A stretch of 32,000 bases of DNA from Gemmata obscuriglobus. GTDB lineage: Bacteria > Planctomycetota > Planctomycetia > Gemmatales > Gemmataceae. Below, piece after piece: positions 467-18,174 of this stretch (positions within the stretch are counted from its first letter, which is position 1; each line of letters opens with the position of its first letter). Under the pieces are notes generated by a model. It saw only the letters and a program-made list of their open reading frames with translations. It was not told where the DNA came from and did no database searches. The translations under genes were made by a program, and so were the position numbers. Where the stretch lies: assembly GCF_008065095.1 (NCBI RefSeq), contig NZ_CP042911.1, positions 540,001 to 572,000 on the forward strand, written 5' to 3'.

Positions 467-916
467 CCCAGCACCAGATCGATGACTCAGCACCCGCGCG
501 CGTGCGGTGCCGGGCCGCGACAGTGGTCGAGAACCCGGCCGCTCTCACACCCGACATACTGGAACGCGTCGGCCAGAATCCGACTCCCCGAGGTGCGCGA
601 CCACGTCCCCCTGGAGTTGCTCCAGCAGTCAGGCGTCGGACCACGGGGACTGGGTGATGAACTTCTGCCGGGACTGCACCACACACGCGTCGATGGCCTC
701 GGCGACGTTCTCCACGCTTCGCCGATCCGCGCCCAGTAGCAGACCCCGTACGAACCAGTAGGCGTGAGCCGCCGCTTCACCCCGGCCGAACAGCAGCCCG
801 TACCGCCCCAGGAACCGGTCCAACTCGGGCTTCAACTGGCGCAGGGCCGGCACATCCACGTGCGCGCCACCCCCAACACATCCCCATGAGCACACCAAGG
901 CCTCCGCTCGTACCAC
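467..916 (-). pseudogene. Decayed IS701-like DDE transposase (N-terminal part)
   Basis: Minus-strand ORF 629..916 reads ...LDRFLGRYGLLFGRGEAAAHAYWFVRGLLLGADRRSVENVAEAIDACVVQSRQKFITQSPWSDA, the N-terminal pattern of IS701-type transposases. It stops at an in-frame TGA (629-631), after which the same frame continues LLEQLQGDVVAHLGESDS. A frameshift is then needed to read QYVGCESGRVLDHCRG and VIDLVLGKE (to about 467). Stops plus shifts indicate a pseudogene. Weaker resemblance may continue to the window start. Confidence 0.45.
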
Positions 917-989
917 GGCACCCGGATGACGTGCAGGAGCAACTGACGAGGCTCTGTAGTATTAGAACCACGCACGGAGACCGCTTGCG

Positions 990-1436
990 TCACTTCGCCT
1001 CGAACAGTTCGATCTCGAACACCAGCGTGGAGCCGGCGGGTATGATGCCCTTGTCCTCGTCGCCGTAGGCCAGGTCCGCGGGGATCCGGAGCCGCCGGAC
1101 GCCGCCCGGCTTCATCCCCGGAATGCCCTCCTGCCACCCCTTGATGAGACGGCCCAGCGGAAAGGTCGCCTTCTTCCCGCGGTCCAGGCTGCTGTCGAAT
1201 TTGGTCGCCTTATCGTCGGTGAGCCAGCCGGTGTAGTGGATCGTCACGGTCGCGCCGGGTTTCACCGCCTCGCCCGTTCCCTCCTTCACGTCCCAGATCT
1301 CCAGCCCGGACTTGGTCTTCTTCCACTCCTTCGAGTCGAGCGCCGGGCGCTCGAGCTTCTTGTCCTCACCGGCCGCGAACGGCACCACCGTGAGCGCCGC
1401 GCACACGGCGAACATCGTCGTCAGACGCATCAGCAT
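990..1436 (-). CDS. FKBP-type peptidyl-prolyl cis-trans isomerase, secreted
   Basis: 148-aa ORF with an N-terminal signal-like segment (MLMRLTTMFAVCAALTVVPFAAG). FKBP core motifs are present: VTIHYTGWL, KFDSSLDRG, FPLGRLIKGWQEGIPGMKPGGVRRLRIPADLAYG. G/C-rich third codon positions. Confidence 0.9.
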   Translation of the reverse strand: MLMRLTTMFAVCAALTVVPFAAGEDKKLERPALDSKEWKKTKSGLEIWDVKEGTGEAVKPGATVTIHYTGWLTDDKATKFDSSLDRGKKATFPLGRLIKGWQEGIPGMKPGGVRRLRIPADLAYGDEDKGIIPAGSTLVFEIELFEAK

Positions 1437-1639
1437 CCCTCCGGACCAGAAACCGAACCGGCGCCGCGCCCGCGGCCCCGTCCTGCCAGGGTACGCCGGC
1501 CTGCCTCTGGGGGCACTGCCGGGGCGCGGAAAACTCTCACCCCTTTTCGCTTGCTTCCGTGCCCGGGAGCGGGATGATGCACAGTCCGGGGCCGCACGCC
1601 CCGGACCCGTTCGCCTCCCTTCCCCGTGAGGAACATTTC

Positions 1640-2704
1640 ATGCGCACCAAGCTGCTGGCCGCCGCGCTGCTCGTCGCGTCCGCCGCCGCGGGCCGGGCCG
1701 ACGACGGCCTGACCAGGGGCACCCCCGAGGTGAAGTCCGTCACGGCCCTCGCGTTCGGCCCCAAGGGGCTGCTGCTCATCGGCGACTCCGCTGGGGCCGC
1801 GGTGTTCGCAGTGGACACCGGCGACACCAAGCCGGCCGGCGACAAGCCGCTGAACGTCGAGAAACTGGACTCCAAGATCGCCGCGGCGCTGGGCGTCACC
1901 GACAAAGACGTGAAGATCACCGACGTGCGGGTGAACCCGGCGTCCGGGAACGTGTTCGTGGGAGTCGCCCGCGGCGCCGGCGCCGGAACCCCGGCGCTGG
2001 TCAAGGTGGCCCGCGACGGCACCGTGGCCCCGTTCGCGCTGAAGGACGTGGCGTTCGCGAAGGCCACGTTTCCGAACCCGGCCACCGCGGGGGCCAAGGG
2101 CGGCGCGCCCGAGGTCATCACCCAGCTCGCGTTCGTGGACGGCAAGGTGATCGTCGCGGGGTTGTCGAGCGAGCAGTTCGCCAGCACCCTGCGCGTAATC
2201 CCGTTCCCGTTCAAAGACGTTGATAAGGGCACCGGAATTGAAATCTTCCATGCCGCACACAACGGCGCGCTCGAAACGAAATCCCCGATCCGCACCTTCG
2301 TGCCGTACAAGATCGGCCAGGAGGACCACATCATGGCCGCGTACACCTGCACCCCGCTGGTGAAGATCCCGGTGGCCGATCTGAAGGCCGGCTCGAAGGT
2401 GAAGGGCGTGACCATCGCCGAGCTGGGTAACCAAAACAAGCCGCTGGACATGATCGTTTACACGAAAGACGGCAAGGACTACGTGCTGATGGCGAACAGC
2501 CGGCACGGAATCCTGAAGCTGCCGGCCGGCGAGTTCGCGACCGCGGCCCCTCTCACCGCGGCGGTCAAGGGCGGCGGTACGGCCGGCGTAAAGGCTGAAG
2601 CCATCAAGGAACTGGCCGACGTGGTGCAACTCGACAAGCTGAACGACACCCAAGCCCTCCTTCTGCTCAAGAGCGGCGACCTGAAGACGATCCCGCTGCC
2701 GTAA
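1640..2704 (+). CDS. Secreted hypothetical protein
   Basis: ATG at 1640 is preceded by GAGGAA. Signal peptide MRTKLLAAALLVASAAAGRA. 354 aa with strong GC3 bias. No family recognised by eye. The 5' extension to 1559 in the ORF track has no RBS. Confidence 0.7.
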   Translation: MRTKLLAAALLVASAAAGRADDGLTRGTPEVKSVTALAFGPKGLLLIGDSAGAAVFAVDTGDTKPAGDKPLNVEKLDSKIAAALGVTDKDVKITDVRVNPASGNVFVGVARGAGAGTPALVKVARDGTVAPFALKDVAFAKATFPNPATAGAKGGAPEVITQLAFVDGKVIVAGLSSEQFASTLRVIPFPFKDVDKGTGIEIFHAAHNGALETKSPIRTFVPYKIGQEDHIMAAYTCTPLVKIPVADLKAGSKVKGVTIAELGNQNKPLDMIVYTKDGKDYVLMANSRHGILKLPAGEFATAAPLTAAVKGGGTAGVKAEAIKELADVVQLDKLNDTQALLLLKSGDLKTIPLP

Positions 2705-2832
2705 CGGTTCGCTGCCCGGCTCGGTCCGGTCCGAGTTCGGTCACGGCTACCCCGCTTGCGTCAGCAGGCGGGGCCATCTCCCCGTAACGCCACTCCTCAA
2801 TTCACGTCTCGCGAATGCGGAACGGGTTCGGC

Positions 2833-3384
2833 TCACACCGGCGGCTCGTCGGTCGCGGTGTCGTCCTCGGGCGGCTTTAAGCCCGGGACGCGAGCGTTCA
2901 GCCTTTGCTGCCGGTGGACCGCCAGGTCGCGTTGCAGCTTCGTCTCGTGGTCGGCCCGGAGCTCCTTGTACCGCGCCATCCAGTACGTTCGCGTCGCCCA
3001 GAAGTCCTTTACGGCCAGGCACACGGCGACGAACACCAGCCCCATCACCACGCTCCAGTACACCGCCACGAGTCGGGCGAACTGCTTGCCCTCCGCCGGT
3101 CGCGGGTCGTCGGCTCCGTCCGGGAGCGCGGGCCGGTCGCGCTCGGGGATGGCGTCCATGCGGGCGTCCATCCCGGAGACGTAGTACCCCGCGATCAGCG
3201 CGCCGATGAGGACCAGGATCGCGGACGTGACGGTGCGGCGCCGGGCCAGCCCGCGGCGGTACGCCCGGTCCACGTCCGGCAGGAACGGCTCCGCGCCGAG
3301 CGCGCGCAGCGTCTGCCGTTGCCGCGCGCCCGTGAACAGCCCGACCAGTACCAAGCCCGCCGCGAGGAGCAGTCCACCGGTCAC
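2833..3384 (-). CDS. Hypothetical membrane protein (about 3 hydrophobic segments)
   Basis: GTG start with GGAAGG upstream. Hydrophobic stretches GGLLLAAGLVLVGLF, AILVLIGALIAGYYV and VVMGLVFVAVCLAV. GC3-rich. No family recognised. Confidence 0.6.
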   Translation of the reverse strand: MTGGLLLAAGLVLVGLFTGARQRQTLRALGAEPFLPDVDRAYRRGLARRRTVTSAILVLIGALIAGYYVSGMDARMDAIPERDRPALPDGADDPRPAEGKQFARLVAVYWSVVMGLVFVAVCLAVKDFWATRTYWMARYKELRADHETKLQRDLAVHRQQRLNARVPGLKPPEDDTATDEPPV

Positions 3385-3444
3385 GGGATCACCTTCCGTC
3401 TTGAGGGCGCTCGGTTACGGTTCGGCGGCCGGCCGCGTCCGCGC

Positions 3445-4677
3445 TCACTTCAACTCGAAGCAGAGCAGTTCCTTTTCGTCGCGCAGGTAGAGCCGCCCGT
3501 CCACGAGCGCCGGGTGCGCCCAGGTGTTCCCGCACGCCTTGCTTTTGGCCAGTTCCTTGAACTCCTTCGGGTTCGCCTCGAACAGAGTTACCGCGCCGGC
3601 GTCGTCGAGCATCAGGAGCGTTTCCTTGCCCGCGGGGCCGCACTTCACGATCGCCGCGTGGTACTTGCCGACGTTCTTCTTCTCCCACGCCACCTTCCCG
3701 GTCTTCAGTTCGACGCACCGGAGCGTGATCGTCGGGTTGCTGAACGACACGGTGCCGTTCACCATGTACAGGTAGTCGCCGACCGCCACGGGGGTCGAGA
3801 AGTAGCACGTGAGCGGCTTGCTGAACCACTCCTGCTTGGTGGCGTACTTGCCGCCGCTCTCGGTGACCTTCAGCCCGATCGCGCCGCCGGTCACGGTGCT
3901 GCCGATGACCAGGTCGCCCACCACGAGCGGGGTGGCGGACGACTCGATCAGGTCGCCCACCTTGCCCTCGAAGGGAACGGCCCACAGCTTCTCGCCCGTT
4001 TCGGACAGCCCGAGCAGGTTCCCGCCGGTGAGGAACACGAGCTGCTTGCCGGCCCGCACGGGGGACGAGTAGCTGGCGGCCTCGTCGGTCGCCTTCCACG
4101 CCGGTTTGCCGGTCTTGGCCTCGAGCGCCACGACGCCGGCGCCCTTACCGCCCACCAGCAGGATCACCTGATCGTTGACCACCAGCGGCGAGGTCGAGAC
4201 GCCGAAGAACAGGTTCTTGGCGTTGAACTCCTTCAGGGTGTCCACCTTCCACTCGAGCGCGCCGGTTTTGGCGTCCCAGCACGCGGCGATCCCGGTGCCC
4301 CCGTAGGTGAACACCTTCCCGTTGCTGACCGCGGGGGTGCCGCGCGGACCGTTGCCGAACAGCGGCTTGAACTCGGCCCGGTCGTAGCTCTTTTCCCACT
4401 TCAGTTCGCCGGTCTTGGCGTCGAACGCGGCGAGCGCGTCGGCGTTCTTCCCCTTCGGTTGGTAGAAGGCGTACACGAGTCCGTCCGCGACCACCGGGGA
4501 ACTGTGCGCCTCGCCGACCGGTTGCTTCCAGAGCGGCTTGAGGGGGGCGGCCCACGGCGCCACGGACTCGGGGGTGCTGCCGTCGCGGTTCGGCCCGAGG
4601 AACTGCGGCCAGTCGGCGGCGGAAAGCGTGAGCGCAGGGGCGAACGCGAGGGCGAGCGCGGCAAGGGAGCGTATCAT
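3445..4677 (-). CDS. PQQ-like / BamB-type beta-propeller repeat protein, secreted
   Basis: ATG is preceded by GGAGG. Signal peptide MIRSLAALALAFAPALTLSA. Recurrent blade motifs: ADGLVYAF, DAKTGELKWE, SNGKVFTYG, DAKTGALEWK, EAKTGKPAWK, ELKTGKVAWE, VDGRLYLRD. Confidence 0.85.
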   Translation of the reverse strand: MIRSLAALALAFAPALTLSAADWPQFLGPNRDGSTPESVAPWAAPLKPLWKQPVGEAHSSPVVADGLVYAFYQPKGKNADALAAFDAKTGELKWEKSYDRAEFKPLFGNGPRGTPAVSNGKVFTYGGTGIAACWDAKTGALEWKVDTLKEFNAKNLFFGVSTSPLVVNDQVILLVGGKGAGVVALEAKTGKPAWKATDEAASYSSPVRAGKQLVFLTGGNLLGLSETGEKLWAVPFEGKVGDLIESSATPLVVGDLVIGSTVTGGAIGLKVTESGGKYATKQEWFSKPLTCYFSTPVAVGDYLYMVNGTVSFSNPTITLRCVELKTGKVAWEKKNVGKYHAAIVKCGPAGKETLLMLDDAGAVTLFEANPKEFKELAKSKACGNTWAHPALVDGRLYLRDEKELLCFELK

Positions 4678-4702
4678 CGGACCTCCTGCGAACCGAGCGG
4701 CG

Positions 4703-5185
4703 TCAGCCCCCGGAGGGTGTGACGACGCTCAGGGGAACCCGTGTCACCGGCGGTGTCATGGTATCCGCACCGTCCGGGCGCGGCCGCGCGTTGAGGAAAT
4801 GGTGCAGGGGGGCGTAGTTCCACCCGGTGCCGTGCGCGTCCGCGATCCGCTTGAGTGCGGCGAGCGACTCCTCCGTGATCTCGCTCATGCGCGGTTCATA
4901 CGTCGGGTCGCAGAAGTAGATACGGCACCCGAGCGGGCGGTTTTCACGAGCGCTGCAGAGCCCGTCGATCTGGAACGGACAGCCGTCGCGGGACACGGGC
5001 TGCTCGTAGCGTGGGGCGCGTTCGAGCAGGATTTCGGCCTCGAACGCGCTGATGAAGAGCGTGTGCCCGTACTCGGTGAACCGGCAGCACCGCCCGGACG
5101 CGTCGCACCGCGGCGCGGCGGCGCTTACAGCCGCGTCCGCCGCCGCGTACACCGCCAGCACCTCACTCCGCACGTCGTCAGTCAT
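4703..5185 (-). CDS. YkgJ-family Cys-cluster (CxxCxxCC-type, UPF0153) protein
   Basis: ATG start. CDASGRCCRF near the N-terminus and a second Cys-rich half (GCPFQIDGLCSARENRPLGCRIYFC). Confidence 0.75.
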   Translation of the reverse strand: MTDDVRSEVLAVYAAADAAVSAAAPRCDASGRCCRFTEYGHTLFISAFEAEILLERAPRYEQPVSRDGCPFQIDGLCSARENRPLGCRIYFCDPTYEPRMSEITEESLAALKRIADAHGTGWNYAPLHHFLNARPRPDGADTMTPPVTRVPLSVVTPSGG

Positions 5186-5201
5186 TGATGAGGTCGTCCC
5201 A

Positions 5202-5324
5202 AAGAGGTTTCACCGCAGAGGGCGCGTGAGGGCGCAGAGAGAAGAATGAAGACCGCGTGAGAGCTCTTTCATACTTTGCATTTTCTCTCTGCGCCCTCAC
5301 GCGCCCTCTGCGGTGAAACCTCTT
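5202..5324. repeat. REP-like palindrome: perfect 42-bp inverted repeat, 39-bp spacer
   Basis: 5202..5243 (aagaggtttcaccgcagagggcgcgtgagggcgcagagagaa) is the exact reverse complement of 5283..5324. It is intergenic between two same-strand ykgJ-like genes. Confidence 0.9.
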
Positions 5325-5363
5325 ATTTCTTCTCGACTGAGGGGCTGCCACCCACGCGGCCCC

Positions 5364-5801
5364 TCACATCTTGATGACCTTGAGCCGGCGGGAAATCTCT
5401 TCGACCGGAATGACCTCGCCTCGGCCCGAGCCCGGGCAGATGTCGCAGGTGCGCTTCCAGTCCTCGGGGGTTTCGACGTTGCTCTCCCAGAACGGCCACG
5501 TGCGGCACTGGGCGGGGCGCACGCCGTACACGGTGCAGCCCCGCTTGGCGTCGAGCAGGACGCAGTCGCCGTTGGGCCGCTCGCGGAGCGTGCGGCGCCC
5601 GCGTGCGCGGCGGGTGAGGCGGTCGCGGGCCTCGTCCACCGGCTCGCCGAGTTTCGCGGCGATCGCGGCGAGTTCCTCGTCGGTGACCCACACGAACCCG
5701 GGCGCGCCGGTGCAGCAGTCCCCGCACTGGGTGCACTCGAACGCCAGCCCGTCCTTGTACCACGGCCCCGGTTCGGCCCCGCCGGTTTGACTGTCTGCCA
5801 C
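5364..5801 (-). CDS. YkgJ-family Cys-cluster (CxxCxxCC) protein
   Basis: FECTQCGDCCTG motif plus DCVLLD, RGCTVYGVRPAQCRTWPFW and CDICPG. I prefer the GTG at 5801 (GGGAGAG RBS just upstream) over the TTG at 5813 used in the ORF track. Confidence 0.8.
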   Translation of the reverse strand: MADSQTGGAEPGPWYKDGLAFECTQCGDCCTGAPGFVWVTDEELAAIAAKLGEPVDEARDRLTRRARGRRTLRERPNGDCVLLDAKRGCTVYGVRPAQCRTWPFWESNVETPEDWKRTCDICPGSGRGEVIPVEEISRRLKVIKM

Positions 5802-7363: not shown

Positions 7364-7839
7364 CGCATCCGGCCGCTCCTCTCGTTCGATCGGCAATGCC
7401 GCTCGCCTCGATCGATTCGCGTGTAAGGTATTACTCAGCAAGGCTTTGTCCTCTGATCCGTGTCTGTTCTCGCTACTCACATTTGGCTGACCGTAACCCT
7501 GTTCCTGGGGCTCAAAGGCCGGGATTCGGTGGTAGCAGCACCCCAGCGAACGGCCAGCTCCTGACCAGTCGGACGGTAGCGAATGTCCAGTCGGCGCCCC
7601 GTCGGTGGTAGCCCGTGCGGTCGTGTAACCCCCGTTACAGCGCCGGCAAGTCGGAAGCGACGACGCCTCCGGACAGGCTTCAACCACCGGCTCTGCCGCG
7701 GTCCGTACCGCACAACGCTTCCAACCGGTGCCGAACGCTCAGGTCAGCAGCCCGCTCTTGACCGCTACCCTTTGCGCCGCGAACGGACACCCGACGTAGC
7801 CGGAAGCCATACACGGCTGATGGCAAGCGGTGGATCTGG

Positions 7840-7868
7840 TTATTGCTCCCCCAACCCGTCGCTATCAT
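7840..7868 (+). promoter_or_regulatory. Candidate sigma70-like promoter for the KAP/NACHT pair
   Basis: TTATTG (7840-7845), a 17-nt spacer, then TATCAT (7863-7868), 22 nt upstream of the ATG at 7890. The short leader contains GGAGGAGGAG. Pattern match only; promoter rules in this lineage are poorly known. Confidence 0.2.
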
Positions 7869-7889
7869 GCACGGGGAGGAGGAGCACGA

Positions 7890-9299
7890 ATGTCTGCGCC
7901 CACATTCCTGTCCGACGAGCCTACACTGACAGACCTGCTCACCCGCATGGACCTCGTCCGGCAGGTAGGCGACACGGCCGCCGGTTGCCACCCACCGTGC
8001 GTGCTCGGCGTGCATGGCGACTGGGGTGCCGGAAAGACCAGCTTCCTCCACATCCTCCACCACTACCTCACCGGCACCTGTCCACCGCTCGACGGGCTCG
8101 ACCGTGGTGTGGTGATGACCGAGCATTGGCCGCAAGAATGGCAACCGAAAGACCACGTTGCGGTAATCTGGTTCGAGGCGTGGCGGTATCAACACGAGCC
8201 CGCGCCAGTAGTCGCGCTGCTGCACGAGATTCGCGCGCAACTGCCTACCGCCAGCAAACTGTTCGATTCGGCCAAGAAGATTGGCGAGGTGTCGGTCAAG
8301 TCCGCACTGTTTGCGATGGAGTGGCTCACCAAGCGGGTCGGGGTGCAGGCTTCCAAGGTACAAGAGATCGGCGAGAAATGGGAGAAAGAACATTTCGCCG
8401 AGCAACTTCCCTCGCACACGCTCCGCCAGTTCCTTGAAGACACCCTGCGCCGCCTGCTCCCGCAGGTCAACAGCGCCCGCGTGGTGGTGCTGATCGACGA
8501 CCTGGACCGGTGCGAGGCTCAGGCCGCGTATCGGTTGCTGGAGGGCATCAAAATCTATCTGAACCTGCCGAATTGCGTGTTTGTATTGGGCGTTAATCAG
8601 ACAGTAATTGAGCAGAGCTTGGCAGAGCAGATGGCCAAAGAAAAGGCCGAGAAACCGAGCGATGAAGCCCGGCTCCGTGCCCGCGACTACATGGACAAGA
8701 TCTGCAAGAATTATTGGCACTTGCCTGCGTGCGCCAATTTTGAGGCGCTCGTGAACCGGTGGCTCCGGGACGCCGGCGTGGCCGATTTGGCAGCGAAAGA
8801 CGGGCAGAAACTTGCGCCGGGCACGCTGGGGTTACTGATTCAGCAGCACAAGTGTCTGCCAGCGAACCCGCGACGGATCAAATCGTTCGTGAACACCTTG
8901 GCACGGTTCCTCGCGCACGCCGCCCGGTCCGGTTCGTTGGACACCCCTGTGCCCGAGTTGTGTGTAGTGCTCGCGTACCTGCACCAGTTTAACCCAGAAC
9001 TGTATCGAGTGCTGGAATGGCACGGCCAAGAGTTTTTTAACCTCATCGCGCAGTGGTGTGAGAACCCCGGGATAACGGCTACTCACGACCTGTTCAAGGA
9101 TCTGAAGCCAGCGGACGTGCCGGGTGCCGCTGCTGCGGCGCCGACGCCCGGCGCCGCAGCGTTCCCGTCCACGTTTCCGGACCCAGCTCGGGGAAACGTA
9201 TTCCGCATCCAGTCGCTTGTCCGGTTCCTGAAGAGCCAAGCGTCGCCCGGTCTCACCACCGACATTTTTAAGCAGTGCCTGATCCGGGGGGCTGTATGA
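7890..9299 (+). CDS. KAP-family P-loop NTPase (soluble; no TM insert)
   Basis: ATG at 7890 with a GGAGGAGGAG RBS. Walker A is GVHGDWGAGKTSF. FEAWRYQ box. Walker B is VVVLIDDLDRCE followed by LLEGIKIYLNLPNCVFVLGVN. YMDKICKNYWHLP and NPRRIKSFVNT are present. These are the hallmark blocks of KAP NTPases (Pfam PF07693). No long hydrophobic segment lies between Walker A and B. Confidence 0.9.
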   Translation: MSAPTFLSDEPTLTDLLTRMDLVRQVGDTAAGCHPPCVLGVHGDWGAGKTSFLHILHHYLTGTCPPLDGLDRGVVMTEHWPQEWQPKDHVAVIWFEAWRYQHEPAPVVALLHEIRAQLPTASKLFDSAKKIGEVSVKSALFAMEWLTKRVGVQASKVQEIGEKWEKEHFAEQLPSHTLRQFLEDTLRRLLPQVNSARVVVLIDDLDRCEAQAAYRLLEGIKIYLNLPNCVFVLGVNQTVIEQSLAEQMAKEKAEKPSDEARLRARDYMDKICKNYWHLPACANFEALVNRWLRDAGVADLAAKDGQKLAPGTLGLLIQQHKCLPANPRRIKSFVNTLARFLAHAARSGSLDTPVPELCVVLAYLHQFNPELYRVLEWHGQEFFNLIAQWCENPGITATHDLFKDLKPADVPGAAAAAPTPGAAAFPSTFPDPARGNVFRIQSLVRFLKSQASPGLTTDIFKQCLIRGAV

Positions 9300-12187
9300 A
9301 CACGCGCAGAACCGCAACCCGGCCGGACCTGCCGGACCCGAACAACGACCCGCGGTTGCTCGCGTACCTGCGGTCGGTGAACGACTGGCACGGGTACATG
9401 CGTTTCCTTGGGTTGCCGCACCTGCACGAAACCCCGGATGAGCCACTGTCGCGGTTGTTCGTGGAGCCTTACGTTCACGGTGCGTACCACCGCGCCGATG
9501 AGCCCACGAAAGCGTGGGAAAAGGGGCGGCACCGGCTGATCGACCTGTTCGATGCGAAGAACCCGAATGTCGTACTGTTGGGCGACCCCGGTGCCGGCAA
9601 ATCGACGCTATTGAACTGGGTAGCGTGGAACTTTACCCGCTGGGATGGGGGAGAGTGGCTGGACAAGTTCGGTCCAATGGTGCCGATTCCACTCGTAATC
9701 CGCGAACTGGCTGTTACCCGCGACATCACCTGGAACTCGTTGTGTGACAAGTTTCTGGAGCATGGCGTCGCGAAGGACAAGCTCACCCGTACTGAGTTCG
9801 ATGCAATATTTGCACGTGGGCAGGCGTTCGTACTGGTGGACGGGTTGGATGAACTGTCCGATCTGGAGGTACGAAAGGCATTGAGGGCAGCAATTGCTGA
9901 GGGCATCGCGCGAGCACAATTTCCGCGGATTAATAAGGACAGGCATCTGCCACCCTGGCTTCTAACCTCGCGCATAGTCGGATACGACGAGGTACCATAC
10001 GACGTCCCCACGGATTGGTCCTCACCTGAGCAGGATGCCGATTCAGAAGAGAGCGTCACTCGATCAGCCGAGACGCTCTCTGGACGGACGAACGTACTGT
10101 TGGCACCGGCCCGAGGGCTGAGCGGAGAATTAATGGTTCCAATGCGTCGAGCGTATTGCTGCCCGTTCGACGACAGACAGGTAGATCAGTTTGCACGAAC
10201 GTGGTTCATGGCGAGAGAGACTAAAGGTACGACCGAAGGTACACGCCTTGCAAGCGAGTTCCTCAGCCGGCTGCGATCTGAAGGAGGGCCACTTGCGTTG
10301 GCTCGAATTCCGAACCTACTCACGCTGTTCGCGCTGGTGTACAAGGTGCAACTTGACCTGCCCCATGGTCGGGCGAAACTGTACGACAAAGTTGCCGAAG
10401 CATACCTGGAGTCGATCGACAAGTCACGCGGATTTCTCCCCAGATTTACCCGTGACCGGATGGAAATGTGGCTAGCGTTCGTCGCATTCCACCTCCAAAC
10501 CCGCCGTGCCGCGAACGCAAAGCAAAGAAGCCGCCAGCAAGCGCGGGAAATCCTTATCGGACGAGAAGAACTGCTCAAGCTTCTCGTCGATGAGATGCCA
10601 AAAGTGGGTGGCGCCCCGAGCCGCTCCGAGGCAGAGCAATTCCTTGATTATGTTGCTCGGCGTAGCGGGCTCTTGCTACCCAGGGGCGAGGGGCGATATG
10701 CGTTCATGCATTTGTCATTCCAAGAGTATTTTGCCGCTCGATGCCTTGAGAATCAAATTGCCTCTCCAAAGTGGGTGCGAGGCCGCGATCTGTACCCAGG
10801 CACATCGCGCGACTCGCTGAACGACTATGCCGATAGTGCGGCGTGGACTGAAACGATGCTACTTTTGTTCGAGCGATTGAGTGAGAGGCCGCAGTGGGCT
10901 GAGGAGTTGCGAGAAGCGCTGTTCGGTCCCCGGTATGAGCTACCCAATGATGACACGGTTTCAGAATCGCGAGTACGACTGCTAGCGGAAATACTGATCG
11001 ACCCCTACACTGGGTTGGAATCTCACGAACGCGAGCGAGATTTGCTGACAATCATTGGCTGGATGTTGCACAGCCAACAGCGAGAGCCCTCCAAAAAGCG
11101 GCACGAAAACGCTCTGCCAGTTATTCTCCGGCGCTCAGGGTTCGATCCCGACAAACGCCTTGAGATGCTCTGGACCCAAATACGCCGAGGACTATCTCTT
11201 CGACGTCTTGTGTTGAGCAAAACAGATATAGCTGATCTGTCCCCTCTAGCACCCCTTACGGCGTTAGAGGAGCTGGATCTGAGCGGCTGTGCGGGGGTAT
11301 CGGACCTGTCCCCGCTGGCCAATCTCACCGCCTTACGGTTCCTGGACCTGAGCGGCTGCGCGGGGGGGGCAGACCTGTCCCCGCTGGCCAATCTCACCGC
11401 CTTACGGTTCCTGGACCTGAGCGGCTGCGCGGGGGTGTCGGACCTGGCCCCGCTGGCCAACCTCACGGCGTTAGAGGGCCTGAACCTGCGCGGCTGCGCG
11501 GGGGTGTCGGACCTGTCCCCGCTGGCCAACCTCACGGGATTGCGGCACCTGAACCTGAGCGGCTGTGCGGGGTGGGCGGACCTGTCCCCGCTGGCCAACC
11601 TCACGGGATTGCGGCACCTGAACCTGAACGGCTGCACGGGGGTGTCGGACCTGTCCCCGCTAGCACCCCTTACGGCGTTAGAGGAGCTGGACCTGAGCGG
11701 CTGTGCGGGGGTATCGGACCTGTCCCCGCTGGCCAACCTCACGGCGTTAGAGGGCCTGGACCTGAGTGGCTGCGCGGGGGTGTCAGACCTGTCCCCGCTG
11801 GCACCACACACCGCCTTACGGTTCCTGGACCTGAGCGGCTGTGCGGGGGTGTCGTGCCTGTCCCCACTGGCACCACACACCGCCTTACGGTTCCTGGACC
11901 TGAGCGGCTGTGCGGGTGTGTCGGACCTGTCCCCGCTGGCCAACCTCACGGCGTTAGAGGACCTGGACCTGAGCGGCTGCGCGGGTGTGTCGGACCTGTC
12001 CCCGCTGGCCAACCTCACGGCGTTAGAAGGCCTGGACCTGAGTGGCTGCACGGGGGTGTTGGACCTGTCCCCGCTGGCACCACTCACCGCCCTACAGTTC
12101 CTGGACCTGGGCGGCTGCGCAAGTGCATTAAGTATCCCTGACGAGCTACAGCGCCGTGGTGTTGTGATAATGAGGCCATCGGCGTAG
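9296..12187 (+). CDS. NACHT-family STAND NTPase with C-terminal leucine-rich repeats (NLR-like architecture)
   Basis: ATG at 9296 overlaps the KAP stop (ATGA, 9296-9299). Walker A is VVLLGDPGAGKSTLLNW (about 9581-9607). Walker B is FVLVDGLDEL. Sensor-1-like motif LLTSR. CCPFDDRQVDQFARTWF block. Helical middle region. Then one degenerate and twelve full 23-aa LRR units (LxxLxLsGCaGVsDLSPLAnLTa). Confidence 0.9.
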   Translation: MNTRRTATRPDLPDPNNDPRLLAYLRSVNDWHGYMRFLGLPHLHETPDEPLSRLFVEPYVHGAYHRADEPTKAWEKGRHRLIDLFDAKNPNVVLLGDPGAGKSTLLNWVAWNFTRWDGGEWLDKFGPMVPIPLVIRELAVTRDITWNSLCDKFLEHGVAKDKLTRTEFDAIFARGQAFVLVDGLDELSDLEVRKALRAAIAEGIARAQFPRINKDRHLPPWLLTSRIVGYDEVPYDVPTDWSSPEQDADSEESVTRSAETLSGRTNVLLAPARGLSGELMVPMRRAYCCPFDDRQVDQFARTWFMARETKGTTEGTRLASEFLSRLRSEGGPLALARIPNLLTLFALVYKVQLDLPHGRAKLYDKVAEAYLESIDKSRGFLPRFTRDRMEMWLAFVAFHLQTRRAANAKQRSRQQAREILIGREELLKLLVDEMPKVGGAPSRSEAEQFLDYVARRSGLLLPRGEGRYAFMHLSFQEYFAARCLENQIASPKWVRGRDLYPGTSRDSLNDYADSAAWTETMLLLFERLSERPQWAEELREALFGPRYELPNDDTVSESRVRLLAEILIDPYTGLESHERERDLLTIIGWMLHSQQREPSKKRHENALPVILRRSGFDPDKRLEMLWTQIRRGLSLRRLVLSKTDIADLSPLAPLTALEELDLSGCAGVSDLSPLANLTALRFLDLSGCAGGADLSPLANLTALRFLDLSGCAGVSDLAPLANLTALEGLNLRGCAGVSDLSPLANLTGLRHLNLSGCAGWADLSPLANLTGLRHLNLNGCTGVSDLSPLAPLTALEELDLSGCAGVSDLSPLANLTALEGLDLSGCAGVSDLSPLAPHTALRFLDLSGCAGVSCLSPLAPHTALRFLDLSGCAGVSDLSPLANLTALEDLDLSGCAGVSDLSPLANLTALEGLDLSGCTGVLDLSPLAPLTALQFLDLGGCASALSIPDELQRRGVVIMRPSA
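11198..12130 (+). repeat. Tandem 69-bp coding repeats (LRR cassettes) inside the NACHT gene
   Basis: Twelve full units start at 11264 with an exact 69-nt period (11264, 11333, ... 12023). A degenerate unit lies at each end. Long stretches are identical between units. Confidence 0.9.
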
Positions 12188-12453
12188 TACTTTGCAAAGT
12201 GGTAGAAGGTGTGCTGGACCGCACATACCGCGCAACGCGCCGAACTCAGTTTTCACCACGTCCCTGGCAGGCCACTTCCGTGTTTCACAATGTGCGTGGG
12301 TTTGGGGCACCCCAGGCCTGCGGGCGCCGGCGGCTCTCGGCCGGCGCCCACAGGAGACGGGATAATTAAGTGGCCCAATCTGAGGCGTGGAATGGCCCGG
12401 CAGGATAGGACCTGTGGAGCGCGGGGCCGTCGCTGCCTCAACCCGGAGCGGAG

Positions 12454-13236
12454 TTACGGCTTGGGGGACACGTCGAAGTCGGTGGGCTTCAGCTCGGTGG
12501 TCGGACCGGCGATCTCGATCGGGTCGCCGGCGCGGCCCTTTACCCCGCCGCGGAGGCCGTTCTCGTGCCAGTACGCGATGCGGAACTTGCCCACGGGGGC
12601 GTTCTTGATCTCGAAGTTCCCGTTCTCGTCGGTGACCGCGTAGTACGGGTGATCGAACACGCGCACATAGCCGACCATCCACGGGTGAACGGAGCACTTG
12701 TAGGGGATTGGTGGGGATTCTTTTACCAGCGCGTTCGGCATCTTCCAGTCGGTCTGCTTGGCGATGTTCGGGTTGTGGGACCCATTGTTGCCGCTTTCCC
12801 AGTAGAAGTTGTGCGCCACCGGGGACGGATTCTTCACCACCAGCGTGTCGCCCACCCGGGCCACGGTGACGCGCTTCACGAACACGCAGCACGGTTGGTC
12901 GATCACCACTTCCGCCGGCTTCCGCTTGGCGTCATCCGGGTGGATCTGCTGCGGCGTGAACTCGGCGGTCAGTTTGGCGTCGTCCGGGCGCAGGTACACG
13001 ACCACGTTCTTGATGCCCCGGTTCTTCGGGTTCACCAGCACCGACTCGTCGAGCAATTGTCCCTTGCTCAGGCAGTGCTCTTTGTCCTGGGTGACGTTGA
13101 GCGTACCGGGCTTCGGCAGGTTCGCGTCCTGTGGGAACACGACCCGGCCTTTCACCGTGGCCCACTTGTCTTTGTCGTCCGCGCCCGCAACGGCCGCGAG
13201 CGCGCAGCACCACACGCACGACATGAGAAGTCGCAT
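12454..13236 (-). CDS. Secreted cupredoxin-like protein with a C-terminal beta-sandwich (carboxypeptidase-regulatory-like) region
   Basis: ATG at 13236 (MRLLMSCVWCCALAAVAGA signal). PVAHNF and YKCSVHPWMVGYVRV give a His...Cys-x2-His-x2-Met pattern like the amicyanin-type blue-copper site. This is followed by FDHPYYAVTDENGNFEIKNAPVGKFRIAYWHE. The track ORF (to 14700) is an artefactual upstream extension. Confidence 0.8.
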   Translation of the reverse strand: MRLLMSCVWCCALAAVAGADDKDKWATVKGRVVFPQDANLPKPGTLNVTQDKEHCLSKGQLLDESVLVNPKNRGIKNVVVYLRPDDAKLTAEFTPQQIHPDDAKRKPAEVVIDQPCCVFVKRVTVARVGDTLVVKNPSPVAHNFYWESGNNGSHNPNIAKQTDWKMPNALVKESPPIPYKCSVHPWMVGYVRVFDHPYYAVTDENGNFEIKNAPVGKFRIAYWHENGLRGGVKGRAGDPIEIAGPTTELKPTDFDVSPKP

Positions 13237-13268: not shown

Positions 13269-14837
13269 TTACGGAGTCGGCCAGTCGTCGCTCTCGAACT
13301 CGATCGGGCCGAGTTCGATGGGGCCGCTCCCGCCGTCGGGAACGGTGAGTTTTGCGCCGAGTCGGCTCGCGGCGCGGTAGCCGGCAACCTCGTGCCACAC
13401 GACAAGGCGCCACGCGCCCGCGGGCACGCCCTTCAGCTCGAACCGCCCGTCGGCGCCCGTGACGGCGAAGTACGGGTGGTCGAACGCCCACACGCAGCCG
13501 CGCATCCACGGGTAGATGTCCGAGCGGTACACGTCCGGGACGCGCAGGGCCGGGAGCGGCTTGGCAGTGTGCGCCACGCCCTTTCCGAGCAGCACGTTGA
13601 AGTCGCGGGCGCCGTCGTCGGTCGGGGCGTAGTGGACGTTGGTCGGCACCGGGAGCCGGTTCTCGAACACCACCGCGTCGCCGGCCCGGGCCGCAACCAC
13701 GCGGGGGCGGAACTGCCCGGCCGCCGCGATTACCGCGTGCGTCTGCGGCCTCGCGCCGGCGAGCGCAGGGTGAACCCGCTCGGCCGGGAACTCGGCCCGG
13801 CGGTCGGTCGAGTCCGGTCGCAGCCAGACGACAGCGTCCGCGATCCCGCGGTTGCCCGCGTTCACGCGGACGCCCTCGTCGAACAGAGGGGCGAACGGCT
13901 CCCACACGCTCGCGTCCTTGAGCGCCGCCGTCGCCAGGGCCGTCGGGTTCGGCGCCGCGTGCCCCTTCGGGAACACGACTCGGCCCGACACGGTCGCCCA
14001 CGGAACGCGCTCGGCGGTGTGCGGGGCCACTTCCGCGGGGGCCGTGGCCTGCGCGGAAGCGGTCGGCGCGGCGTCGCTCGCGAACCCGTGCGCCAGCCCG
14101 CCGACCGCGAGCGCCACCGAGGTCAGTAGCGCGGCCGCCTTCAGCCCGACTCCCCGGACCAGCACCTCGTTCGCGAGTACCGTCGCCGCCGGAGACGGCT
14201 TCAGTGCCGGGACCGCGGCCCGCGCCGGCGCCCCGAGTCCGCCCACGAGCAGCCCCGCCCCGAGCGTCACGCCCCGGCGGGCGAGGCGCGAGCGCAGGAG
14301 TTCCTTGCCGCTTTCGAGTCGGCGGCGCAGGGTGCTGACGCTCCACCCCAGTTCGCGCGCCGCCTCGTCCTGGGTGCGCTCTTCGAGGAAGCACGCGACC
14401 AGCGCCGCCCGCATCTCCTCGGGCATCGTTCCCAGCTCTTCGTCGAGGACGCACAGGAGGTCGCTGAAATCGCTGCCCGGGGCGCCCGCTTCCGCCGCCG
14501 GCTGAGCGGCGCGGGCCTCGCGCCGCTCGCGCCGGTGCTCGTGCCGGCGGGCGGCCGACCCGACCCGCCGCGCGGTCCCGAACAGCCACCCGCCGACGGA
14601 CGCCGCCTCGACCGCCTTCTGCGGCGCGCGGGCGAGTACCAGGAACACGGCCTGGAACGCGTCCTCGGCGAGGTGGGCGTCGCGGACCGCCCGGCGGCAC
14701 ACGCCGAACACGAGGCGGCCGTGCCGCTTCACGAGCTGCTCGAACGCGTCCTCGTCGTGCTGCTCCGCGAACCGCGCCAGCAGCGTGCGGTCGTCGAGCG
14801 CGAGGAGCGGGTTCAAAAACGGGGTGCGAGCGGACAT
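13269..14837 (-). CDS. ECF (sigma-70 family) sigma factor fused to hydrophobic segment(s) and a cupredoxin-like C-terminal domain
   Basis: Region 2: HGRLVFGVCRRAVRDAHLAEDAFQAVFLVLAR. Region 4: TQDEAARELGWSVSTLRRRLESGKELLRSRLARRG. Hydrophobic stretches VTLGAGLLVGGLGAPA and AAALLTSVALAVGGLAHGF. The C-terminal 250 aa are paralogous to the product of 12454..13236 (WATVSGRVVFP, NRGIADAVVWLRPD, PWMRGCVWAFDHPYFAVTGADGRFELKGVPAG). Confidence 0.85.
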   Translation of the reverse strand: MSARTPFLNPLLALDDRTLLARFAEQHDEDAFEQLVKRHGRLVFGVCRRAVRDAHLAEDAFQAVFLVLARAPQKAVEAASVGGWLFGTARRVGSAARRHEHRRERREARAAQPAAEAGAPGSDFSDLLCVLDEELGTMPEEMRAALVACFLEERTQDEAARELGWSVSTLRRRLESGKELLRSRLARRGVTLGAGLLVGGLGAPARAAVPALKPSPAATVLANEVLVRGVGLKAAALLTSVALAVGGLAHGFASDAAPTASAQATAPAEVAPHTAERVPWATVSGRVVFPKGHAAPNPTALATAALKDASVWEPFAPLFDEGVRVNAGNRGIADAVVWLRPDSTDRRAEFPAERVHPALAGARPQTHAVIAAAGQFRPRVVAARAGDAVVFENRLPVPTNVHYAPTDDGARDFNVLLGKGVAHTAKPLPALRVPDVYRSDIYPWMRGCVWAFDHPYFAVTGADGRFELKGVPAGAWRLVVWHEVAGYRAASRLGAKLTVPDGGSGPIELGPIEFESDDWPTP

Positions 14838-17087: not shown

Positions 17088-17161
17088 AGCGGTGTGGAGC
17101 CGAATGGTAAGGCGACGCCCTGTTAAGGCGTAATTTGTAGGTTCGATTCCTACCACCGCTG
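17088..17161 (+). tRNA. tRNA-Asn(GTT), non-canonical D region
   Basis: Acceptor AGCGGTG/CACCGCT. Anticodon stem ACGCC/GGCGT with loop CTGTTAA. T-arm GTAGG-TTCGATT-CCTAC. Only a 3-bp D stem (GCC/GGC) after a 4-nt linker. No encoded CCA. Confidence 0.6.
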
Positions 17162-17174
17162 CTCGCTGGTCGCT

Positions 17175-17248
17175 ACGGGGATGGGCTAACGGTATGCCTC
17201 CGGGCTTTGAACCCGGCCACCATGAAGGTTCGACTCCTTCTCCCCGTG
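17175..17248 (+). tRNA. tRNA-Gln(TTG)
   Basis: Acceptor ACGGGGA/TCCCCGT. D stem GGC/GCC. Anticodon stem CCGGG/CCCGG with loop CTTTGAA. T-arm GAAGG-TTCGACT-CCTTC. Unusual 7-nt variable region. No CCA. Confidence 0.65.
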
Positions 17249-17269
17249 CTCGGCGCGGTCGGGACCTGT

Positions 17270-17341
17270 TCCGGGGTAGTTCAACGGTAGCAACGCCGCG
17301 CTCTGAACGCGGAGATGTTGGTTCGATTCCAGCCCCCGGAA
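17270..17341 (+). tRNA. tRNA-Gln(CTG)
   Basis: Acceptor TCCGGGG/CCCCGGA (U1:A72). U8. Anticodon stem CCGCG/CGCGG with loop CTCTGAA. T-arm GTTGG-TTCGATT-CCAGC. No CCA. Confidence 0.85.
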
Positions 17342-17347
17342 CCTCTC

Positions 17348-17456
17348 GAATGCGGAGTGCGGAATTCAGAACGGGGAATTAAAAGCAACGGATTGAAATC
17401 ATTGCTGTGGTTGCTTTGGATTATATTCCGCATTCCGGATTCCGCACTCCGCATTC
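17348..17456. repeat. REP-like nested palindrome between tRNA genes
   Basis: gaatgcggagtgcggaat (17348-17365) is the exact reverse complement of 17439-17456. There is an inner aaagcaac...gttgcttt pair and an extra attccgcattcc half-copy. Confidence 0.85.
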
Positions 17457-17463
17457 AAAACAC

Positions 17464-17536
17464 GCCTCGCACGCTTCAACGGTGAAGCAGCCGGCTTTTA
17501 ACCGGTATACGCAGGGTTCGATCCCCTGGCGGGGCA
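17464..17536 (+). tRNA. tRNA-Lys(TTT)
   Basis: Acceptor GCCTCGC/GCGGGGC (one G:U pair). D stem GCTT/AAGC. Anticodon stem GCCGG/CCGGT with loop CTTTTAA. T-arm CAGGG-TTCGATC-CCCTG. Discriminator A. Position 8 is A rather than U. Confidence 0.75.
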
Positions 17537-17550
17537 CTGGTTCGTAACGT

Positions 17551-17623
17551 CCCGGCGAAGCTAACTCGGTAGAAGCGCCGTGCTGAAAACGCGGAGGAGC
17601 TGGTTCGACCCCAGCCACCGGGA
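17551..17623 (+). tRNA. tRNA-Phe(GAA)
   Basis: Acceptor CCCGGCG/CACCGGG with one C:A mismatch. Anticodon stem CCGTG/CGCGG with loop CTGAAAA. T-arm GCTGG-TTCGACC-CCAGC. Discriminator A. Positions 8-9 are AA. Confidence 0.7.
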
Positions 17624-17692
17624 CCTGTTTTGAAGTTCGGAACTCGGAACGGATCGCGCGGTCCTTGTCGCGATTCCGTGCTCGAAAAGACT

Positions 17693-17764
17693 GCGTTCGT
17701 GAGGTTAGTGGTAGCCTGCTTGGTTCCCAACCAGGATGCGCGGGTTCGAGTCCCGCCGAACGCT
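17693..17764 (+). tRNA. tRNA-Gly(CCC)
   Basis: Acceptor GCGTTCG/CGAACGC. U8. D stem AGGT/GCCT. Anticodon stem CTTGG/CCAGG with loop TTCCCAA. T-arm GCGGG-TTCGAGT-CCCGC. Discriminator U. Confidence 0.9.
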
Positions 17765-17781
17765 CTGCCCGCGCCCGACAT

Positions 17782-17875
17782 CGGGGGCGTACACACGTAG
17801 CTCAATAGTAGAGCACTCGCTTTGGGAGCGGGAAGTTGCCGGTGCGAATCCGGTCGTAACTTTCAACCGCCCCCG
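17782..17875 (+). tRNA. tRNA-Pro(TGG)-like element with a disrupted acceptor stem (possible pseudogene or tRNA-like RNA)
   Basis: Intact D-arm (TA GCTC AATAGTA GAGC). Anticodon arm CTCGC-TTTGGGA-GCGGG. T-arm GCCGG-TGCGAAT-CCGGT. The 7-nt acceptor positions (ACACACG/CGTAACT) pair at only about 4 of 7. Instead, an outer perfect 8-bp helix CGGGGGCG (17782-17789)/CGCCCCCG (17868-17875) closes the structure. Confidence 0.35.
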
Positions 17876-17894
17876 GCACTCGCGCGGGCAACTT

Positions 17895-17966
17895 CAGGAC
17901 GTGGGCCATTGGCTGGCCGCGAGTCTTGGGAACTCGTTCAAGTCGGTTCGATTCCGGCCGTCCTGA
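17895..17966 (+). tRNA. tRNA-Pro(TGG)
   Basis: Acceptor CAGGACG/CGTCCTG (C1:G72). U8. D stem GGCC/GGCC. Anticodon stem CGAGT/ACTCG with loop CTTGGGA (G37). T-arm GTCGG-TTCGATT-CCGGC. Discriminator A. Confidence 0.9.
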
Positions 17967-17970
17967 TCGC

Positions 17971-18041
17971 GCACCGTCCGACGGTTTATCGGCACCGGGC
18001 CTCCGAAGTCTGGTCGGCTGGTTCGACTCCAGCACGGTGTA
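17971..18041 (+). tRNA. tRNA-Arg(CCG), non-canonical D region
   Basis: Acceptor GCACCGT/ACGGTGT. Anticodon stem CGGGC/GTCTG (two G:U pairs) with loop CTCCGAA. T-arm GCTGG-TTCGACT-CCAGC. The best D helix (CCGA/TCGG) starts directly after the acceptor with no 8-9 linker. 71 nt. Confidence 0.6.
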
Positions 18042-18049
18042 CTGTTCGC

Positions 18050-18122
18050 GGGTCGGAAGCTGATACGGAATAGCGGCGGGTTGTTAACCCGCGTGTAGTG
18101 GGTTCGATTCCCACCCGGCCCT
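18050..18122 (+). tRNA. tRNA-Asn(GTT)
   Basis: Acceptor GGGTCGG/CCGGCCC (one G:U pair). D stem GCTG/TAGC. Anticodon stem GCGGG/CCCGC with loop TTGTTAA. T-arm GTGGG-TTCGATT-CCCAC. Positions 8-9 are AA. Discriminator U. Confidence 0.75.
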
Positions 18123-18174
18123 CTGCCACATCTCGCCCACAGTCCGGTTGCCGGTGTCTGCTTTGGATTTGGCT

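Follow-up and report, generated by a model that had tools for sequence, protein, structure and literature searches.

A coupled KAP NTPase and NACHT-LRR gene pair of Gemmata obscuriglobus as a candidate two-NTPase conflict module

Two NTPase genes overlap by four nucleotides on the forward strand of a 32,000-nucleotide stretch of the Gemmata obscuriglobus chromosome, which is referred to below as the window. The first gene encodes a KAP-family P-loop NTPase and the second a NACHT NTPase of the STAND class that ends in leucine-rich repeats (LRRs). The source is identified by the KAP protein, which is 100% identical to AWM40934.1 and QEG25759.1. The locus raises the question whether the two NTPases work as one unit and, if so, what such a unit would do for the cell. 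The reading favoured here, with a probability of roughly 0.55, is that the pair is one horizontally mobile conflict module, most likely anti-phage, resembling an animal NOD-like receptor (NLR) that has been split over two polypeptides.

Strict linkage and co-divergence of the two genes

Genomes of 185,579 species, one per species, were surveyed with an alignment of KAP homologues only as the query, and 80 of the 152 confirmed loci were kept. A NACHT-LRR orthologue lies directly downstream on the same strand at 77 of these 80 loci, orthology being judged with the N-terminal 620 residues of the window NACHT protein (E 1e-17 to 1e-214). Of the remainder, two are contig ends and one is a shortened KAP fragment. 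This fragment, from a Nitrospiraceae metagenome-assembled genome (MAG; L085, 5989-6774), covers residues 6-225 and has no NACHT in the next 2.7 kb; decay of the copy or an assembly error may account for it. By the record titles of the genome loci, the pair is carried by at least 11 phyla, namely Planctomycetota, Acidobacteriota, Pseudomonadota (alpha, beta and gamma), Hydrogenedentota, Verrucomicrobiota, Actinomycetota, Nitrospirota, Binatia, Spirochaetota, Armatimonadota and Desulfobacterota. Three more metagenome contigs hold the same pair in differing surroundings. Chance adjacency, or an islet confined to Gemmata, is rejected by this synteny across genome loci.

The junction between the genes is short. 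Among 79 non-redundant pairs, the exact 4-nt overlap is found in 39, and the two genes lie within 15 nt of each other in 65. A long gap separates them only at L047 (Arenicellales MAG), where an IS256/Mutator transposase (7396-8646; Pfam Transposase_mut, 1.7e-68) is placed exactly between KAP and NACHT-LRR. Long open reading frames (ORFs) at L020, L042 and L067 were considered as KAP-NACHT gene fusions and rejected as out-of-frame read-through in high-G+C DNA. All-against-all clustering of the flanking ORFs of 79 loci gave no third conserved gene; the other flanking 'families' consisted of antisense shadow ORFs and of a type III methylase in 8 related loci, and were rejected.

The two genes have diverged together. 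The KAP and NACHT-LRR distance matrices of 62 pairs correlate with r = 0.93, a value reached in 0 of 2000 Mantel permutations. The linkage was also approached from the other side by a reciprocal metagenome search, in which the NACHT alignment served as the query and scoring was done with hidden Markov models (HMMs) of the families. Every complete NACHT-LRR orthologue without a fused effector (365 bits or more against the family HMM) has a KAP gene upstream. No family-type KAP lies near the NACHT paralogues, whose scores against this HMM are 123-273 bits; in one case (L120) a distant KAP is found downstream of such a paralogue. On this one metagenome contig (682-5609), the gene of a NACHT-HEAT-repeat protein (1075 aa, 682-3909) overlaps the KAP gene behind it, whose product bears pentapeptide repeats at its C-terminus (570 aa, 3897-5609), the gene order being reversed with respect to the KAP/NACHT-LRR pair. 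Given this case, STAND-KAP partnerships may be more general. No NACHT was found beside distant KAPs in viral contigs, and sequenced plasmids and GenBank phages returned distant KAPs only, at 26% identity. The KAP and NACHT-LRR genes almost certainly constitute one functional unit.

The two NTPases and the effector slot

To judge from its predicted structure, the downstream protein is an NLR-like protein without the N-terminal effector known from bacterial NACHT proteins. Its assignment to the NACHT family is based on the Pfam score, on the Walker A and B motifs together with the sensor-1 arginine and the winged-helix histidine, and on C-terminal repeats with an NLR-like fold. The Pfam NACHT match (PF05729) of the window protein amounts to 28.7 bits (E 1.4e-6), just over the gathering score of 26.7, and LRR_4 is matched in 9 stretches (6.8e-52). 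When orthologues were scanned with Pfam, NACHT was recognised in 48 of 48 (best E 5.5e-13) and LRR_4 in 45 of 48. The NTPase motifs are intact (Table 1). GDPGxGK[ST] occurs in all but 2 of the orthologues scanned, and P339 is invariant like the motif residues of the table. The winged-helix histidine, H472, is presumably the counterpart of the ADP-contacting histidine of animal NLRs. The equivalent histidine was used by Kibby et al. (bioRxiv 2022.07.19.500537) for hyperactivating bacterial NACHT proteins (bNACHTs).

In the AlphaFold2 (AF2) model of the NACHT-LRR protein (predicted local distance difference test, pLDDT, 85), Walker A begins at residue 96 and the LRRs form a solenoid of about 13 repeats. 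Foldseek aligned the model over its full length with NLRC4, NAIP5, NLRP3 and NOD2 (E 1e-19 to 1e-12), and the LRR part with Roco and internalin, whose LRR type it resembles. No transmembrane (TM) helix was predicted in the protein, and neither Pfam nor the AF2 model revealed an N-terminal effector domain before Walker A. In most orthologues whose start is well placed, the first residue of Walker A is at about 85-100, so that the lack of an N-terminal domain extends across the orthologues. The LRR array is also a tandem repeat at the DNA level (11254-12120; 12.6 copies of 69 nt, 84% matches), and the variation among the Gemmata repeats is concentrated at the two x residues of LxxLxL.

The upstream protein belongs to the KAP family by its Pfam match, by the conservation of Walker A and B (Table 1) and by its fold likeness to a solved KAP NTPase. 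The match to KAP_NTPase (PF07693) spans residues 34-340 with 111.8 bits against a gathering score of 20 (E 5e-32). With the AF2 model (pLDDT 84, predicted TM-score 0.84) as the query, the top 14 Foldseek matches were the heptameric RdrA rings of RADAR (8hr8, 8fnt, 8fnu; E 1e-7 to 5e-5), at a TM-score of 0.35-0.46 (0.46 when normalised to the query) and an identity of 12-16%; ORC, Cdc6 and RFC were the next best. RdrA (8fnu, 8.4e-5) was also the sole sequence-profile match in the PDB. TM helices inserted in the NTPase domain are typical of many KAP members, without being universal. None was predicted in the window protein (highest 19-residue Kyte-Doolittle mean 1.29), and a low-confidence helical insert of the AF2 model (130-152) stands where many KAP members hold them. 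When 1.84 billion cluster representatives were searched exhaustively with a profile, 1,228 proteins reached E <= 1e-30; 150 or more among them are at E < 1e-92, nearly all of about 450-500 aa.

The part that KAP could play is suggested by close NACHT-LRR relatives that carry an effector in cis, found in a search seeded with one of them, P0225. Homologues in the NACHT-LRR family number 1,176 at E <= 1e-10. An N-terminal Peptidase_C14 caspase is present on P0225 itself, DUF4062 on P0257, P0259, P0261, P0262, P0265 and P0268 and also at L087, and a metallophosphoesterase on P0275 and P0281. P0225 is 63% identical over 725 aa to P0126, the KAP-linked NACHT-LRR protein of L009, and the homology starts right behind the caspase. 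DUF4062 is described in one report (10.64898/2026.05.01.722283) as a TIR-like NADase acting in defence. At L206 (3135-7149), which codes for a metallophosphoesterase-NACHT variant, a small TIR_2-domain protein (152 aa) is encoded directly upstream; the variant gene is split or frameshifted there, since its LRR part lies in a separate downstream ORF.

KAP and cis-fused effectors exclude each other: none of the five effector-fused loci inspected (P0225, P0257, P0262, P0281 and L087) has a KAP gene. No KAP was detected within 8 kb upstream of P0225, where six frames gave no HMM match at E <= 10, at the loci of P0262, P0257 and P0281, or in the 950 nt of upstream sequence at L087. When a neighbour-joining tree was built from the NACHT module with paralogues as the root, the fused types fell, each by itself, at three separate places inside the KAP-linked clade. 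Against the family HMM, full-length fused proteins score 645-733 bits, KAP-linked ones 592-799 and the outgroup 235-273; two partial metallophosphoesterase-fused sequences score 528 and 270 bits. Because the NACHT-LRR protein has no effector in cis and its fused relatives have no KAP, the simplest reading of this mutual exclusion is that the KAP gene appears to fill the effector slot of a NACHT-LRR chassis. The odds that KAP is in fact the output of NACHT-LRR are taken to be about even.

A role in biological conflict and its alternatives

Four copies of the pair are located in Pseudomonas-type prophages (L166-L168 from IMG/VR, and L084 from Pseudomonas pharyngis), in each case directly after the integrase gene. 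In L166 the integrase gene is followed by KAP, by NACHT-LRR and then by the genes of a CI-like repressor, a Cro-like and a CII-like protein, and the pair there occupies the cargo slot of a lambdoid lysogeny module. Identity among the four copies is 91% for the integrase, 80-91% for KAP and 60-71% for NACHT-LRR. The share of columns identical in all four is 0.58-0.88 for KAP, 0.34-0.92 for the NACHT module and 0.17-0.26 for the LRR. Thus it is the LRR, and not KAP, that is hypervariable in related prophage copies, which points to the LRR as the ligand-recognition surface; to judge from the sequences, such a pattern would be expected where a recognition surface takes part in an arms race. Elsewhere, the neighbours of the pair include the toxins BrnT, YafQ and PIN as well as SocA, and 4-5 of 39 loci are bordered by type III restriction-modification genes. 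Horizontal acquisition fits the deviant third-position G+C of the Gemmata genes, the patchy distribution over phyla and the carriage by prophages. It is probable, on the whole, that the pair is a conflict or defence system.

In the proposed mechanism, NACHT-LRR would act as sensor and switch, its fast-evolving LRR solenoid binding a ligand that is derived from or modified by the invader. Binding would free the ADP-locked NACHT module (His472), leading to nucleotide exchange and then to oligomerisation, steps that are modelled on established NLR/STAND behaviour. The output would be the KAP NTPase, which the translationally coupled upstream gene could supply in fixed proportion. The activated NACHT oligomer may recruit or unlock KAP, and KAP would probably assemble into an RdrA-like ring; displacement from the effector slot and the RdrA-like fold suggest these two steps. 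The C-terminal FPDPxxGNVFR tail of KAP is a candidate surface for contact between the two proteins. Unrestrained NTP hydrolysis or remodelling by KAP could then arrest the infected cell or the invader.

Several points weigh against this reading. The four prophage copies count as one lineage because their integrase is shared. Most of the genes that flank the 39 loci are housekeeping genes, as are the neighbours in Gemmata (FabH, a CxxCxxCC protein, an ECF-sigma fusion and GatB), and with most neighbours unremarkable the defence-island signal is only moderate. Five loci with fused effectors underlie the displacement argument, together with a neighbour-joining tree that has no bootstrap support. 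The KAP protein is little more than its KAP domain; as it has no recognisable toxic domain and no TM helix, its effector chemistry, whether triggered NTP consumption or remodelling of protein or nucleic acid, is a guess. The physical interaction and the direction of signalling rest on inference, as do the defence function and the effect of KAP on the cell. Moreover, in RADAR the part of regulator is assigned to the KAP homologue RdrA and that of effector to RdrB, the opposite of the role proposed here for KAP.

The same defence module could also work with its roles reversed, KAP being a sensor or regulator, or else a chaperone or guard, and the NACHT-LRR oligomer being itself the output, which might, for instance, trap an essential protein of the phage or the host on the surface of its LRR. 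Such an arrangement would agree with RdrA, the closest solved KAP, whose effector is a separate partner, with the absence of a toxic domain from KAP and with the position of the KAP gene, which is encoded first and translationally coupled, as is often the case for regulators. It would not explain why the relatives that lack KAP gain a caspase, a TIR-like NADase or a metallophosphoesterase at the N-terminus, where NLR outputs sit. Since the loss of KAP coincides with the gain of a classical effector, and since the LRR rather than KAP is hypervariable, reversed roles are rated as unlikely, below the order of events in which NACHT-LRR senses and KAP responds.

Rather less probable is a two-NTPase signalling or housekeeping module outside defence, such as a Roco-like switch, that has moved horizontally for other reasons. 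The ordinary metabolic genes around the pair in Gemmata and at most other loci would suit such a module, as would the likeness of the LRR to that of a bacterial Roco protein and the failure of known defence HMMs to match either protein over its full length. It is opposed by the patchy distribution, with 152 confirmed hits in 185,579 species genomes over at least 11 phyla, by the position in the cargo slot of the prophage lysogeny module, by the hypervariable LRR and the sister proteins fused to caspase, TIR-like NADase or metallophosphoesterase, and by the toxin-antitoxin and restriction-modification genes nearby.

The Gemmata locus and its place among known systems

Table 1. Features of the KAP/NACHT-LRR locus, in positions of the window. 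Conservation refers to 38 orthologues for KAP and to 48-63 orthologues for NACHT-LRR.
Feature	Positions	Strand	Remarks
Upstream leader, non-coding	7364..7889	+	526 nt; G+C 0.633; 3' end is the Shine-Dalgarno-like GGGGAGGAGGAG before the KAP ATG
KAP-family P-loop NTPase gene	7890..9299	+	469 aa, predicted soluble; Pfam KAP_NTPase; AWM40934.1, QEG25759.1
KAP Walker A, G43-S51, GDWGAGKTS	8016..8042	+	G43, W45, G46, G48, K49, T50 and S51 invariant
KAP Walker B / DDLDRC, D203-C208	8496..8513	+	D203, D204, D206, R207 and C208 invariant
ATGA, KAP stop overlapping NACHT start	9296..9299	+	letters read in the sequence; translational coupling
NACHT-LRR STAND NTPase gene	9296..12187	+	963 aa; AWM40933.1, WP_109571341.1; Pfam NACHT and LRR_4
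NACHT Walker A, G96-T104, GDPGAGKST	9581..9607	+	G96, D97, P98, G99, G101 and K102 invariant
NACHT Walker B, DGLDE, D182-E186	9839..9853	+	D182, G183, D185 and E186 invariant
Sensor-1 arginine R226 of LLTSR	9971..9973	+	R226 invariant
Variable insert, predicted disordered, aa 242-278	10019..10129	+	pLDDT < 50; consensus unalignable
Winged-helix histidine H472 of FMHLSFQEYFAA	10709..10711	+	F470 and H472 invariant; consensus FxHLSFQEYF
LRR array and C-terminal cap	11198..12187	+	about 13 repeats of 23 aa, LxxLxLSGCxGVSDLSPLAxLTA
Intergenic, between convergent genes	12188..12453	.	G+C 0.647

Gene calls at the locus could be improved in two respects. The RefSeq model of the KAP gene (WP_148087581.1) starts at GTG 7830 and gives 489 aa. 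The 469-aa model is the better one, because ATG 7890 is preceded by a strong Shine-Dalgarno sequence, GGAGGAGGAG, and agrees with the N-termini of orthologues. In public databases the NACHT-LRR protein is labelled 'Internalin-A precursor' or 'leucine-rich repeat domain-containing protein', and many orthologues are 'internalin A' at JGI, the NACHT NTPase having been missed; the label 'Internalin-A precursor' is corrected here to NACHT-LRR STAND NTPase.

A preliminary description of the locus, made from the sequence, is largely borne out. The KAP hallmarks that it listed (GVHGDWGAGKTSF, FEAWRYQ, LIDDLDRCE and NPRRIKSFVN) are all present in the 469-aa translation, and the NACHT motifs GDPGAGKST, FVLVDGLDEL and LLTSR in the 963-aa one. 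The ATGA overlap was read where it had been placed, and the C-terminal LRR array is the one recognised by LRR_4. The Pfam search and the neighbourhood survey that it had proposed have been run, with matches to KAP_NTPase, NACHT and LRR_4 and with an adjacent NACHT-LRR gene at 77 of 80 KAP loci. Its statement that the pair differs in composition holds as well: the 60 nt from 8581 contain exactly 28 G+C, and third-position G+C is 0.75 in KAP, 0.64 in the NACHT module and 0.79 in the LRR against 0.86-0.92 in six flanking genes. The non-coding DNA before and after the pair is AT-richer, as had been said, with a G+C of 0.633 and 0.647 against a window mean of 0.675. That the pair is one horizontally acquired unit is supported by the synteny together with the deviant third-position G+C, the patchy phyla and the prophage copies.

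No integrase, insertion sequence element or flanking direct repeat was found around the islet in the window. Scans for promoters and terminators gave no more than is expected from shuffled sequence and carry no information in a planctomycete; no convincing sigma-70 promoter came up in the leader, and Rfam matched no structured RNA there. A G+C-rich hairpin downstream of NACHT-LRR (inverted repeat I3, 12317-12354; 15-nt arms, 93% complementary, 8-nt loop) is a possible terminator; for lack of a T tract it was not called in the terminator scan. Next to the pair, on the - strand, lie the genes of a secreted-looking 254-aa protein (12454-13218) and of the ECF-sigma fusion (13269-14837, 521 aa). 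Both proteins have a similar C-terminal region, WATV(S/K)GRVVFP ... YPWM ... V(F/W)(D/A)FDHPY(Y/F)AVT ... G.F.(I/L)K..P.G., for which Pfam gave a weak CarboxypepD_reg match in the sigma fusion only. Adjoining gatB is a dense tRNA cluster (17088-18123, G+C 0.59-0.63) with 8 genes by ARAGORN (Asn, Gln x2, Lys, Phe, Pro, Arg, Asn) and two additional Rfam matches at 17693-17764 and 17795-17857 that are absent from the ARAGORN calls.

The pair was compared with catalogued systems. In PADLOC v2.0.0, KAP gave partial matches only (PDC-S20, QatA and PifA); the sole match of NACHT-LRR was mad8, over the P-loop only, with no Avs model at E <= 0.01, and neither protein matched the RADAR model. In NCBIfam (June 2026), KAP scored 102.6 bits against QatA over partial stretches (cut-off 600) and NACHT-LRR 29.5 bits against EruA (cut-off 1000). 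The full-text literature searched, which did not extend to the supplementary material of the Nature STAND survey of 2026 or to the KAP family paper of 2004, contains no description of the pair. Within these sources the pair appears to be undescribed, as the preliminary description had supposed from the lack of a name. It is very unlikely that the pair has already been named or catalogued, for example in a newer DefenseFinder or PADLOC model or as a family of the 2026 STAND survey: the PADLOC-DB version used dates from 2023 and KAP partially matches its candidate PDC-S20, but the June 2026 NCBIfam (release 20) gave sub-threshold partial matches only, no KAP and NACHT pairing was found in full-text literature through August 2026, the KAP defence paper of that year (PLoS Biol 2026) is silent on NACHT, LRR and STAND, and bNACHTs occur only rarely in operons, which are poorly conserved (Kibby et al.).

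Among STAND proteins, the bNACHTs (Kibby et al., bioRxiv 2022.07.19.500537; Cell 2023) are alike in having a NACHT module with all NLR motifs, a C-terminal repeat sensor, a mobile, patchy distribution and a fold like that of NLRC4, NLRP3 and NOD2. They are tripartite single polypeptides with an N-terminal effector, whereas the Gemmata protein lacks this part and has an obligatory coupled KAP partner. An LRR sensor is found in bNACHT16, which was assayed in that work; LRR is listed there as a recurrent C-terminal sensor, with 116 entries in the architecture table, and the earlier statement that NACHT with LRR is uncommon in bacteria was overstated. Avs/AVAST proteins differ by their N-terminal effector and TPR-like sensor, and the pair matches no Avs model of PADLOC v2.0.0.

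Among KAP systems, RADAR is likewise a two-gene defence system with a soluble KAP-type NTPase, and its RdrA is the best structural match of KAP. Its partner is the adenosine deaminase RdrB in place of a NACHT-LRR STAND protein, no deaminase is encoded at the Gemmata locus, and with about 800-900 aa in RdrA against about 460 aa in KAP the likeness is at the level of the fold only. PifA, Tmn, EF_KAP, PDC-S20 and QatA have a P-loop NTPase domain of the KAP type in common. PifA, Tmn, EF_KAP and PDC-S20 work on their own, mostly with TM helices or with C-terminal regions fused to them, and QatA works with QatBCD, which are absent from the Gemmata locus and from the conserved neighbours; in contrast to both kinds, the KAP described here is soluble and always accompanied by NACHT-LRR. 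The PDC-S20 model matches KAP with 96 bits (8.5e-28) in two partial stretches of its 464 positions, at a similar protein size, but PDC-S20 is a single-gene candidate and the Gemmata KAP has an obligatory partner gene. Walker B is essential for defence by EF_KAP, and KAP NTPases with an intact Walker B are antiphage proteins (PLoS Biol 2026).

The DUF4062-, caspase- and metallophosphoesterase-NACHT-LRR proteins, with which DS-8 of DefensePredictor and the Swarozyc DUF4062 NADases may be compared, share the NACHT-LRR module of the pair and fall inside its clade; they carry their output at the N-terminus of the one polypeptide and have no KAP gene, where the pair has a separate one. NAIP/NLRC4 in animals and the paired NLRs of plants offer an analogy, in that an effector is delivered through a second oligomerising NTPase, and the NACHT-LRR layout and overall fold are comparable; the second NTPase here would be a KAP and not a STAND protein. 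According to the literature, KAP replaces STAND in the bDLD3 and EAD10 systems.

The KAP/NACHT-LRR pair is best placed within NLR/STAND-type defence, as a new variant whose KAP output is encoded in trans. Bacterial NLR-like proteins, which are regarded as ancestral or analogous to the innate immune receptors of animals and plants, have to our knowledge so far been described as single polypeptides that bear their own effector. A more far-reaching proposal, advanced here only tentatively, is that a bacterial NLR signals via a separate, ring-forming KAP in a heterotypic two-NTPase immune complex, KAP being a new effector class that is evolutionarily interchangeable with caspase, TIR-like NADase and metallophosphoesterase. 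If true, this would place the poorly understood KAP family (PifA, Tmn, RdrA, QatA, human NKPD1 and Kidins220) downstream of a pattern-recognition receptor. It would also provide a natural swap series, in which one sensor chassis is combined with KAP, caspase, TIR-like NADase or metallophosphoesterase and the activation of unrelated outputs by a NACHT oligomer could be studied, and a candidate system for phyla that screens centred on E. coli miss, such as Planctomycetota, Acidobacteriota and Hydrogenedentota.

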